Shown here: positions 412-3,785 of the stretch, piece by piece | Numbering within the stretch: the stretch's first letter is position 1 | Layout: every line of letters begins with the position of its first letter | Assembly: GCF_046105845.1 (NCBI RefSeq) | Contig: NZ_CP151004.1 | Length of the DNA: 64,000 nt | Direction: 5' to 3' (one strand) | Source of the DNA: Escherichia coli | GTDB taxonomy: Bacteria > Pseudomonadota > Gammaproteobacteria > Enterobacterales > Enterobacteriaceae | Program-made: the position numbers and the translations under genes | Notes under the pieces: model-generated | Database searches by the model: none | Seen by the model: the letters and a program-made list of their open reading frames with translations, nothing else | What the model was told of the DNA's origin: nothing

Positions 412-1302
412 TTAGTTTTCATCTATATAATCCGCTACCCAATCTGCACCAAAATAACCAGCTGCACCAAAAACAATTCCGCCAATAATCCCGGTAGCCA
501 CTGCTCCTGGCCCAGTAGTAACACCCAGGGACGCGCCTATCACTGTTCCAATTTTAGCACCAGCTACTGCTCCTCCCCATCCTCCAATTTGCCTTATTGC
601 TTCTGCACCTATAGGTTTTATGCTTTTTGTTTCAAACGATTTTTCAGTTGCCTGTTCTAAATCATATGCAGTGAAAAAAATACTAAAAACTTGTACGACA
701 CGCCCGGCCTTAACAATGTTTTGAGTCGTTTTTAGAGACTCTGGTGTAAAAATTGTTTGTGCTGGTACTTTTCTACCTTCGATCAAGACCTCTTTATCAA
801 TATCATCAACATAGCCTGAAATTTTTTCAACACGCTTAGCCAAATGAGGGTATTGTTTCTTATACTCCTCAAGAGCAGTAATAATCTCTGCGGTCGAGAT
901 TAACTTCAATCCGGCATTTTTTGCTTTGTGAACATCAATAAATATGGTTTTCCCCTCAAATCTCGGAGAGCCATCAGGAAATATAGAGCTTGTAGAAATC
1001 AACGAGGATTTGTTGTTCCCCATAACATGTTCTGCTACAGTAGTGGGTGCTGAATAATCTTTTGGCATCAACCCATAGCGTTCAGGCTCTGTTTCTGATA
1101 ATAATCTAAGAGGATCCAGATTCATCTTTGTCAGGTAGGGACTATTTGGTGAAGCATATATTTTTCTGACAAGAAAGCCATCTTTTCCCGGTTCATCGAT
1201 AACTATAAAAAAGAAACCTCTTGCAGGCATTAAGGGTCCTAATATATCGTGATTTGAATCAGGTATATCATTTGTTCCTACTGTATTCTCAGATATCACC
1301 AT
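412..1302 (-). CDS. candidate VgrG-associated T6SS effector with C-terminal glycine-zipper-like hydrophobic tail (function unknown)
   Basis: 296-aa ORF whose start overlaps the vgrG stop by 7 bp (translational coupling). AT-rich. C-terminal about 55 aa is glycine-rich and hydrophobic with repeated GxxxG spacing (GGWGGAVAGAKIGTVIGASLGVTTGPGAVATGIIGGIVFGAAGYFG). I do not recognise the N-terminal 240 aa. Confidence 0.5.
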   Translation of the reverse strand: MVISENTVGTNDIPDSNHDILGPLMPARGFFFIVIDEPGKDGFLVRKIYASPNSPYLTKMNLDPLRLLSETEPERYGLMPKDYSAPTTVAEHVMGNNKSSLISTSSIFPDGSPRFEGKTIFIDVHKAKNAGLKLISTAEIITALEEYKKQYPHLAKRVEKISGYVDDIDKEVLIEGRKVPAQTIFTPESLKTTQNIVKAGRVVQVFSIFFTAYDLEQATEKSFETKSIKPIGAEAIRQIGGWGGAVAGAKIGTVIGASLGVTTGPGAVATGIIGGIVFGAAGYFGADWVADYIDEN

Positions 1303-3785
1303 TTTTCCAGCGCCTTAATACCAAGAAGTACGTTTAGGTTATCAGCTTCTTCCGTGAAAATTCTTTCACAGCACCCGGCAGAATCAGTAAACCCCTTATA
1401 GATATTCCCTATGCTGTCTTCTATATAGTAAGGTACATTAGCAATGAATTTTCCGTCATCATCAATTACTCTAACTTGCTCATCAAATTTCGCAGATATT
1501 ACAGGAAACGCCATCAGCTCCGGCGTCAGCTTCGCCTTTGGTTTACGCCCGTAATATCCGGCCTTAACGTTATATTCTCCCTGCGTTCCTGCTTCTATCC
1601 CGCAGGCATCCAGCCGGATGTAGCTGCCACCGCCGTTAAGGGTGATTTTCTTCTTCGCGGTGATCTTGATCTCATCTTCCGTACTGGTGATCTCTATCGA
1701 TTTCTGCGCCAACAGTTCCATCAGATCGTTCTGTGCCTGTACCGAGATCGCCCCCTTGTTGGCAAACAGCTTGATGCCCGCCTTGCGTACAAACACGCTC
1801 AGCGCCTGGCCCACGCCGATAAACATATTTTTCACCACGCCGACATCGGCGTTGTTGCCTGCGTTGGCTATCACATTCTTTGCCGCCGCCAGTTGCAGGT
1901 GCTCTCCGCTGGCAATCGCCACGCCTTTGGGTGCGCTTAGCAGGATCGCCGCCTGCGTCAGATCTTTTACACTCTGCTGCAACAGCGCTATCTGTGATGA
2001 CAGATCTGCCGGATCGGCATTCGCCGTCTGCGCATCAGTGGACAGCGACTTCATCTGTGACTGTGCGCCATCCAGTATTGCCATTGCCGGAGCCATTTCG
2101 CGCACCTGACCCTGAGCCTTGTCCTGCGCATCGGCGCTGATAAAGATGCCTTTCTTCGCCCGCACTGCGCCCCACATATCGGTACGCAGTTCAAAGCCTT
2201 CGCCGCGCTGCTGTTTCCCGGCATCCACCAGATGACCAAGGTTTAGCTGACTCTTGCCGCCGTACTCGGTACTGACCTTGATATGTTCTTTGCCGCGCTC
2301 GTCATCCAGCCGGATTTTGTTGTTCGCCGGGGTGCGCAGCACGTTGCGCTTGTAGTTCTGGATAGTCACATGGTCAGTGTGTGCCGAGTCGTGTTTTACG
2401 CCTGCAATATAAGGTCGGTCCGGGTTGCCTTCCTCAAACGCGATACTGACCTCCGTTCCCGCCAGCAGCGGCAGGTGCAGGCCGTAGGTGTCTCCCGCAT
2501 ACGGGCGCGACTGGCGTACCCACAGGCTTTCATAACCCGGTTTCCACGTATCGCGGTCAAAGTCCAGGTTGACCCGGTAGCGCCCGTCCTTGTCGATATG
2601 GGCATAGATATCGTTCTTCACCGTGCTGGTGACCCGCGCCGGAAGCGTGCCGGCCATTACCGGGCGGGGGATAAACGCCGGGCGGTAGCCGTAGCGTTCT
2701 GAGTACGGGATAGCGGTAAACGTCAGTTCATAGCTGCGGTCACGCGCCGCGCTGGCCGTCACGCCGGTAATCAGCACGCCCTTGCGAAACACCGCTGGCG
2801 CGTCGTCGCCCTGAACCTTTATCTCCAGCCCCTGTGTCAGCAGTGAACTGGTGCTCTGGCCTTTGAGAATGGCCTGTTCATTCAGGTAGCGTTCGTGGCG
2901 GATACGGGCATAAAACGCGCCGCTTTCCGCTGCCTCCTTGTCGCCTTTTTGCAGGAAGTTGTCAGCGTAGTGGTAGGCTTCGCCATAGGTGGTGTTATCG
3001 CCCCCGGTGGCGTCATGCTGCTCTGTCATCATCTCTGCTGTGGCGGTGCGGTAGTTGTAGTCCCGCGTGGTGACGCTTTTCTCCACCACGCTGTACGCAG
3101 TGTTCAGCCCCCATACCGCTTCCGTGGTGCCGTCGTGTAGCCCTGAAGGATGGCGAAGCGGCAGCGTCAGTCCGCGCTCATAGCCGCTCTGGTCGTCGTA
3201 AAACTCGACAACCTCAATTTTCAGCCGGGCGTCGGTGGCAAAGCGGAACCAGATACCCACTTCCGACAGCAGGCGTGAAATAAACGTCAGGTCGTCCTCA
3301 CCGTACTGCATCACCTGTTCACGGGACGGGTATTCGCTTTTGAGGTTAAACACGAAGTCCTGACCGCGCATCTGGTGCCGCTCGCGCAGGATTTTTTCGA
3401 CGATTTGCGGCACCGTCAGATTCTGGTAGATGGCGTTCTGGCGGCTGCGGGCCAGCAGTGCCATACGGGGTTCAAGACGCACTTCGTAACGGGCTTCATC
3501 CTGTGACGAGGAGAGATGCTTAAAGCCGGTAATGACCCCGTACAGGGTGCGCAGGGGGGCCTGCACCGGCATTCCCTGTACCGGCGGTGCCGTCAGGCTG
3601 AATGCGCCGTCCTGCATCAGCACCGACTCCGGCTCGATGGCTTTATCGCTGCTGGTAAACTGGATATCGTAGCGGAACGGGGTACTCAGTTGTTCGCGGC
3701 CTTCGAAGGTCAGCACATCCACCGGACTTTGCAGGCCGCGAATTTTGAGCTTGTGGTGTGAATGGTCGAAATTCTGAATACCCAT
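1296..3785 (-). CDS. vgrG: T6SS spike protein VgrG (TssI), 829 aa, with C-terminal extension
   Basis: N-terminal region (DVLTFEGREQLSTPFRYDIQF) and overall length are typical of VgrG. Strong SD (GGAGG) upstream. The last ~70 codons are AT-rich, unlike the rest of the gene. Confidence 0.9.
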   Translation of the reverse strand: MGIQNFDHSHHKLKIRGLQSPVDVLTFEGREQLSTPFRYDIQFTSSDKAIEPESVLMQDGAFSLTAPPVQGMPVQAPLRTLYGVITGFKHLSSSQDEARYEVRLEPRMALLARSRQNAIYQNLTVPQIVEKILRERHQMRGQDFVFNLKSEYPSREQVMQYGEDDLTFISRLLSEVGIWFRFATDARLKIEVVEFYDDQSGYERGLTLPLRHPSGLHDGTTEAVWGLNTAYSVVEKSVTTRDYNYRTATAEMMTEQHDATGGDNTTYGEAYHYADNFLQKGDKEAAESGAFYARIRHERYLNEQAILKGQSTSSLLTQGLEIKVQGDDAPAVFRKGVLITGVTASAARDRSYELTFTAIPYSERYGYRPAFIPRPVMAGTLPARVTSTVKNDIYAHIDKDGRYRVNLDFDRDTWKPGYESLWVRQSRPYAGDTYGLHLPLLAGTEVSIAFEEGNPDRPYIAGVKHDSAHTDHVTIQNYKRNVLRTPANNKIRLDDERGKEHIKVSTEYGGKSQLNLGHLVDAGKQQRGEGFELRTDMWGAVRAKKGIFISADAQDKAQGQVREMAPAMAILDGAQSQMKSLSTDAQTANADPADLSSQIALLQQSVKDLTQAAILLSAPKGVAIASGEHLQLAAAKNVIANAGNNADVGVVKNMFIGVGQALSVFVRKAGIKLFANKGAISVQAQNDLMELLAQKSIEITSTEDEIKITAKKKITLNGGGSYIRLDACGIEAGTQGEYNVKAGYYGRKPKAKLTPELMAFPVISAKFDEQVRVIDDDGKFIANVPYYIEDSIGNIYKGFTDSAGCCERIFTEEADNLNVLLGIKALEKW

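Follow-up and report, generated by a model that had tools for sequence, protein, structure and literature searches.

The vgrG locus and its cargo genes

We analysed a stretch of 64,000 nucleotides of Escherichia coli DNA (contig NZ_CP151004.1, assembly GCF_046105845.1), called the window below, and in particular the vgrG gene near its start together with the two genes downstream. These genes belong to a type VI secretion system (T6SS) cluster on the minus strand, in which tssB, tssC, tssK, tssL, a gene of the OmpA family, hcp and tssH are followed by vgrG. The next gene encodes a candidate effector of 296 aa, and the last one, which leaves the window, a candidate immunity protein (Table 1). 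In the reading that we consider very probable, the last 66 codons of vgrG encode the TTR loading domain of a portable low-GC unit of ~1.8 kb (TTR tail, Rte1-like toxin and Rti1-like immunity protein), which is recombinationally exchanged between vgrG genes.

The gene product is named VgrG by an NCBIfam match. Its Pfam domains are Phage_GPD (residues 30-346), Phage_base_V (397-463), T6SS_Vgr (484-585) and DUF2345 (603-743). The last of them ends at residue 743, and the tail considered here, residues 764-829, is the extreme C-terminus. The conserved part of the gene has a GC content of 0.58, and of 0.71 at third codon positions (GC3). Both junctions between the three genes are overlaps, the immunity ATG being situated 11 nt inside the 3' end of the effector gene (412-422). 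The overlapping gene ends suggest translational coupling of vgrG, the effector gene and the immunity gene.

Composition step and identity break inside vgrG

A preliminary description of this DNA had noted by eye that vgrG is GC-rich down to about position 1500 and then AT-rich, continuous with the downstream genes. We fitted a two-segment maximum-likelihood change-point to the bases of positions 1-8000, to codon GC and to GC3. All three place the switch at window base 1508, that is, codon 759/760, with a log-likelihood gain of 116.7 at the level of bases. The profile is sharply discontinuous at this point: GC falls from 0.587 to 0.369, and GC3 from 0.71 to 0.31. Since the drop sits at synonymous positions, it is not an amino-acid effect. 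The GC3 of the tail is below that of all 3,174 sliding 70-codon windows of eight T6SS core genes used as controls (minimum 0.34, mean 0.67; z = -4.3 for the tail), and it is similar to that of the effector gene (0.27). The low-GC tract runs on through the 296-aa gene and the partial gene behind it to the window start, as had been described. GC also falls at the tail in the other measurable loci whose long upstream frame is a VgrG or is taken to be one, e.g. from 0.60 to 0.40.

The alleles of vgrG were compared in 5,426 complete E. coli genomes. The vgrG core (positions 1509-3785) was matched in 1,305 of these at 90-95% identity, and in 1,000 the match extends over 80% or more of the core. No core is more than about 95% identical to that of the window, compared with 99.5% for housekeeping DNA of the same window. 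The low-GC stretch 1-1508 was found in only 41 genomes, always at full length and always with at least 99.2% identity, the cassette being 99.2-99.5% identical in them. With the whole region as the query, most alleles cease to match at query positions 2282-2288, corresponding to window positions 1504-1498. Homology to other E. coli alleles ends at ~1497, after residue I763, and thus the swapped part comprises 66 codons and the stop codon. The composition change-point and the homology break coincide within 12 bp. At the protein level, all alleles share the segment ending in KLTPELMAFPVI and are divergent afterwards.

The alleles fall into two sets on the two sides of this point. For those with the same cassette (E. 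coli 536, E04, DETEC-S792, A24), identity is 92-96% along the core, rises to 100% for the tail and stays at 99.4-99.5% for the effector gene. Those with other cargo (E24377A, ST131, 504211 and the second vgrG of 536) are 92-95% identical in the core and about 45% in the tail, the fall to ~45% setting in with the bin 1520-1491, and their effectors are non-homologous. The cargo gene behind the E24377A and ST131 alleles encodes an SLT transglycosylase, and the one behind the second vgrG of 536 a different hypothetical protein. In the comparison of the window with E. coli 536, mismatches amount to 5-10% down to position 1518, and there are none between 1517 and 1142.

Thus the composition break and the identity break coincide, the same cassette stands behind divergent cores, and different cassettes stand behind the same core. 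The junction and the mosaic identity show that recombination between vgrG genes exchanges the TTR-Rte1-like-Rti1-like unit. The preliminary description had proposed a recombination junction inside vgrG, with a C-terminal tail acquired together with its cargo, and both proposals are supported by the allele comparison. Neither of the two results that it had named as refuting, a GC profile lacking a break near 1500 and even identity along vgrG to alleles with unrelated cargo, was obtained. The C-terminal sequence that it quoted is exact. It had put the swapped tail at about 70 codons; the swapped tail is real, and its extent has to be corrected to 66 codons and the stop codon.

A second class of alleles (9 of 40 sampled) ceases to match at query positions 1682-1684, near window position 2103. 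MS7163 has another DUF2345 region as well as another tail, followed by an esterase/lipase gene as cargo and an immunity gene of the Tli4 family.

Table 1. Features of the vgrG region and of the neighbouring T6SS island, in window coordinates
Feature	Coordinates	Strand	Remarks
vgrG	3785..1296	-	829 aa
vgrG conserved part, residues 1-763	1497..3785	-	gp27-like hub, OB fold, gp5/T6SS_Vgr beta-helix, DUF2345 needle
Recombination junction	1497..1508	-	maximum-likelihood composition change-point at 1508; last shared residue I763 ends at 1497
TTR-like VgrG tail, residues 764-829 and stop codon	1296..1496	-	predicted docking platform for the effector encoded downstream
296-aa candidate effector gene	412..1302	-	Rte1-like; ATG overlaps the vgrG stop codon (ATGGTGA)
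Candidate Rti1-family immunity gene, 5' part	1..422	-	~140 of 205 codons; start ATG 422..420; leaves the window at position 1
Second, alternative junction	2102..2104	-	at about VgrG residue 560, before DUF2345; used by another allele class
OmpA-family gene	7182..8891	-	57-bp tandem repeat at 8263-8387
ParB-family gene	14907..15719		far end of the island
P4-type integrase gene	15913..16935		adjoins the T6SS island
tRNA-Asp gene	17399..17475		adjoins the T6SS island

Extent and probable mobility of the cassette

E. coli 536 and E04 share the tail, the effector gene, the immunity gene and a 47-bp spacer at 99.3-100% identity. The vgrG cores flanking this stretch on either side reach only 84-97% identity, and GC climbs again at the next vgrG. 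Therefore, the cassette unit is estimated at ~1.8 kb. In both genomes, it ends on the right where the next vgrG of a tandem array begins.

The position of the cassette in the array varies: it is the first unit after tssH in 536, and it follows other modules in E04 and DETEC-S792. It also occurs in T6SS islands at two chromosomal sites, next to tRNA-Asp and an integrase gene in the window, and next to tRNA-Met in 536, where the homologous T6SS cluster adjoins three tRNA-Met genes. The arrays contain two or three vgrG-effector-immunity units, whose cargo includes Tle1 (DUF2235) and an amidase. The tail-carrying vgrG of DETEC-S792 (L030 1719-4213) and a vgrG upstream in the array of E04 (L029 1-22) are annotated as frameshifted.

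One possibility is that not the cassette but the vgrG cores have turned over: gene conversion by paralogues would rewrite the core up to the linker, and the tail-effector-immunity unit would stay in place. Genomes do hold several core copies (median 2, up to 6), the cores are arranged in tandem arrays, and identity to 536 is patchy along the core and the upstream T6SS genes (0.80-0.98 per 200 bp), as would be expected under conversion. However, the same cassette is found at differing positions of the array and in islands at both tRNA-Asp and tRNA-Met, its GC content of 0.37 fits neither the T6SS cluster (0.59) nor the genome (0.52), and the same module stands on unrelated carriers in other genera (see below). 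We thus regard turnover of the cores as the unlikely, though not negligible, explanation of the mosaic. It is compatible with cassette movement, and either process sets the recombination boundary at the same place.

More tentatively, the E. coli vgrG cores may serve as repeated recombination scaffolds in an integron-like array, with the linker before the TTR as the preferred cassette boundary and with units moving between T6SS islands. The choice between the nested junctions, at about residue 763 for the TTR only and at about residue 560 for DUF2345 with the TTR, might then reflect the extent of needle contact made by each effector class. We consider this extension possible, but rather less likely than not to hold in full.

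The tail as a candidate loading domain

The tail alone has no Pfam or NCBIfam match, and a word-indexed protein search with its 66 residues returned two fragments only. A profile of the tail, in contrast to the single sequence, gave 778 matches at E <= 0.001 among cluster representatives, mostly at the C-terminus of proteins of 170-200 aa.

The AlphaFold2 model of the tail, made from 19 homologous tails, is confident, with a predicted local distance difference test score (pLDDT) of 91.3. It is a small beta-sandwich with a short C-terminal helix. The best match by Foldseek among solved structures is 6sjl_A, the VgrG1-Tle1 complex of enteroaggregative E. coli (EAEC), with a root-mean-square deviation of 1.2 A over 53 columns, a template modelling score of 0.66 and a probability of 1.00. 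The C-terminal 144 residues of VgrG can also be aligned by sequence to residues 701-819 of EAEC VgrG1. In this alignment, the junction residue I763 corresponds to about residue 773, which is 5 residues ahead of the published deltaTTR truncation at 778 (PMC10715212). The TTR of EAEC VgrG1 is described as attached by a flexible linker; its fold is complemented by the N-terminal strand of Tle1, which it thereby binds (PMC10715212).

When one genome per species was scanned, 22 loci with effector homologues came up, 21 of them with an upstream reading frame. In all 21, which are from other genera, the protein encoded directly upstream of the effector homologue ends with a homologous domain of ~65 residues. 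The consensus of the tail is FDEQ.R...G.P.ANVPY.I.D..G..YKG.TD..G...R..T......L.V..G..ALE.W, and positions R15, P28, Y29, G41, G47, R51, G65, A68, E70 and W72 are invariant in the tail alignment (A3). The carrier is VgrG in Citrobacter, Pseudenterobacter, Ewingella, Salmonella arizonae and Vibrio ruber. The long upstream frames of Grimontia and Enterovibrio are cut by contig ends, and these carriers are taken to be VgrG. In Pseudomonas and Burkholderiales the tail is carried by a small PAAR protein (the Pfam PAAR_motif is present in 5 of the 6 small carriers), and in V. coralliilyticus by a small arginine-rich protein (RIX). In the reverse direction, starting from the profile search, an effector homologue was found behind the tail-bearing protein in 3 of 3 cases; P0176, where the contig ends at the gene, was left out of this count. 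The pairwise identities of tails and effectors are correlated (Mantel r 0.31, reached by 4 of 5,000 permutations). The linkage of tail and effector across genera is strict and independent of the carrier protein.

In two contigs from metagenomes or genomes, the tail-bearing vgrG is split into genes of 220 aa and 385 aa (L033 2275-4158, L034 1306-3189), and in two others (L035 and L036 4728-5495) the effector homologue has 255 aa only, without the glycine zipper. All four appear to be decayed modules.

The tail is predicted to be a TTR-like loading domain for the 296-aa effector. The N-terminal strand of the effector may bind it by fold complementation, as is known for Tle1 and predicted for Rte1. 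The earlier suggestion that the tail may be the effector-recruitment domain is favoured by the TTR-like fold of the model, by the linkage across genera and by experiments on the Vibrio counterpart of the module (PMC10435454). Alternatively, the tail could be a toxic or otherwise functional domain of an "evolved" VgrG with no part in the loading of the downstream protein. Some VgrG C-terminal extensions are indeed toxins, and according to one paper a toxic role of TTR domains is not formally excludable (PMC11148199). However, the tail has 66 residues only and is a plain beta-sandwich, its neighbour always belongs to one effector family, and the homologous RIX-TTR protein by itself did not intoxicate prey (PMC10435454). 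This alternative is therefore highly improbable.

The effector and immunity genes

The closest described system is the module of V. coralliilyticus BAA-450, which consists of a RIX protein with a C-terminal TTR_1 domain, Rte1 and Rti1 (Kanarek et al. 2023, Nat Commun; PMC10435454). Rte1 has an ADP-ribosyltransferase-like domain with a pertussis-toxin-like fold, conserved residues H94/S106/E174, and a glycine zipper. Its toxicity is removed by the substitutions H94A and S106A, and the toxic protein is neutralised by the immunity protein Rti1. In an AlphaFold2 prediction, residues 1-25 of Rte1 complete the TTR barrel, and the full RIX-TTR protein is needed for T6SS secretion and killing. The TTR_1-Rte1-Rti1 module occurs fused to RIX, PAAR or VgrG (all PMC10435454).

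The 296-aa protein has no Pfam or NCBIfam match. It has 344 homologues at 55-70% identity in Enterobacterales, Vibrionaceae, Pseudomonas and Burkholderiales, which are named "glycine zipper family protein" at NCBI. Residues R46, H92, S103/S105 and E171 are invariant in 19 effector sequences, and the C-terminus is a glycine zipper. Near the N-terminus, T10, N11 and S16 are conserved. Of the invariant residues, H92, S103/S105 and E171 correspond to H94/S106/E174 of Rte1, and the BAA-450 protein (locus L023), to which the E. coli effector is 61% identical, has H94, S106 and E174 at those positions. An ADP-ribosyltransferase-like active site in the E. coli effector is a guess that agrees with the published one (PMC10435454). 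With a profile of the effector family, the C-terminal third gave matches to colicins Ib and B (pore-forming domains) at E 0.65-0.93; these are weak and non-significant, and they were not counted as evidence.

The part of the immunity gene in the window is 98.8% identical to the gene of E. coli 536 over positions 411-1. Homologues of the full 536 immunity protein are encoded directly 3' of an effector homologue in 26 loci, including BAA-450, at 25-40% identity. Judging from these similarities, the protein annotated as "hypothetical" or "glycine zipper" is probably an Rte1-type ADP-ribosyltransferase-like T6SS toxin with an Rti1-type immunity protein. No paper came up in a full-text literature search for WP_000236948, the accession of the E. 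coli protein.

Evaluation of the proposed mechanism

In the mechanism proposed by analogy to published systems, the TTR would be suspended by its linker at the tip of the VgrG needle. It would bind the N-terminal segment of the 296-aa effector, and the beta-barrel would be completed by this binding. The spike trimer could then carry three toxin molecules into the target cell, and the immunity protein would block the ADP-ribosyltransferase-like active site in the producer. The left crossover falls within the conserved vgrG core, up to the linker at I763; therefore, effector specificity would be swapped and the spike body left untouched.

The junction, the mosaic identity, the predicted fold of the tail, and the linkage of tail, effector and immunity genes across genera and carriers are the results on which this reading is built. 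Several points weigh against it. Firstly, the Foldseek E-value is only 0.011 for the 72-residue model, and sandwiches of the CnaB and MG (macroglobulin-type) families score nearly equally. Secondly, the AlphaFold2 model of the effector is poor (pLDDT 50), and the comparison of the effector profile with solved structures gave only non-significant matches. Thirdly, the co-phylogeny signal of tail and effector is modest, and one of the effectors contributing to it (L010) is frameshifted. Fourthly, the right-hand boundary of the cassette falls beyond the window, and the exchange may have gone either way, by movement of the cassette or by conversion of the flanking cores from paralogous vgrG genes. 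Finally, we infer the binding, secretion dependence and toxicity of the E. coli proteins from their homologues.

Nothing was found in favour of reading the GC step as chance, as a chimeric assembly or as an outcome of the tail's amino-acid make-up, and these causes can be ruled out with near certainty, as the drop sits at third codon positions, the tail is outside the range of the 3,174 control windows, the identical junction is present in 41 complete genomes, and the homology break lies within 12 bp.

Genomic setting

The host is E. coli, as the tilS-ldcC region is 99.5% identical to that of the nearest complete genome. The T6SS island adjoins a P4-type integrase gene and a tRNA-Asp gene. Its far end (window positions 13000-17475) contains an AT-rich stretch (GC 0.32 at 13-14 kb) and a ParB-family gene, and beyond the tRNA-Asp gene there are genes for a second tRNA-Asp, tRNA-Ala and tRNA-Ile. 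The 57-bp tandem repeat in the OmpA-family gene (2.2 copies, 98% match) doubles a stretch of 19 residues, PWLLWSGLSGSPLPEKAHS, and therefore the protein has 569 aa, compared with 550 aa in the annotated homologues of 536 and E24377A.

Comparison with known systems

The E. coli unit has the same three homologous parts in the same order as the V. coralliilyticus TTR_1-Rte1-Rti1 module. The tails are 40% and the effectors 61% identical, both effectors have the H/S/E residues and the glycine zipper, and the immunity proteins are homologous (E = 7e-13). The differences are that the carrier here is a full-length VgrG with a DUF2345 needle rather than a small RIX protein, and that the host is E. coli. 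The text and supplements of the RIX paper, as far as they could be searched, mention no E. coli module, junction, composition step or population mosaic (PMC10435454).

The VgrG1 protein of the EAEC Sci-1 system (Flaugnatti et al. 2016, 2020; PDB 6sjl) is built in the same way, of gp27, gp5, DUF2345, linker and TTR, with the cargo gene directly downstream. Its TTR is the best structural match of the tail, and its domain boundary lies within about 5 residues of the junction. However, the TTR domains are only ~21% identical, and the phospholipase Tle1, the EAEC cargo, is unrelated. It touches the needle sides in addition, and the Rte1-like protein is likened to it on tail docking only.

In V. cholerae, homologous recombination exchanges the effector-immunity modules behind vgrG (Kirchberger et al. 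2017; PMC5361080). As in these modules, and in the displacement of Rhs C-termini, a conserved upstream gene provides the homology arm for modules that vary and spread by horizontal transfer, and the clusters are mosaics. Unlike in V. cholerae, the left boundary in E. coli is situated inside vgrG, at a domain linker, and thus a part of the spike protein travels with the cargo. The right-hand arm differs as well, being the next vgrG core of the tandem array.

The VgrG2a, VgrG2b and VgrG4b proteins of P. aeruginosa and its PAAR proteins with extensions (Wood et al. 2019; PMC7376260) offer another parallel. Spike bodies there are 99.5% identical and the TTR domains 25%, and the latter are predicted to set the lipase that is delivered (PMC7376260). 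In that case the effectors are other ones, and the proteins are paralogues in one genome, whereas here alleles are exchanged in the population.

Significance

The E. coli case is a further example of the already described TTR-Rte1-Rti1 module; as such it is of low surprise and conceptually adds little. What it offers is a view, at base-pair level, of how E. coli would re-arm its T6SS spike: a docking domain of 66 codons is exchanged with toxin and antidote, and the spike body is kept. The annotation suggested for the 296-aa protein extends to uropathogenic E. coli 536, F11 and 39 other complete genomes. The break of identity or GC content at the VgrG linker is a simple marker, which may be used to assign cargo to VgrG and to find unannotated effectors.

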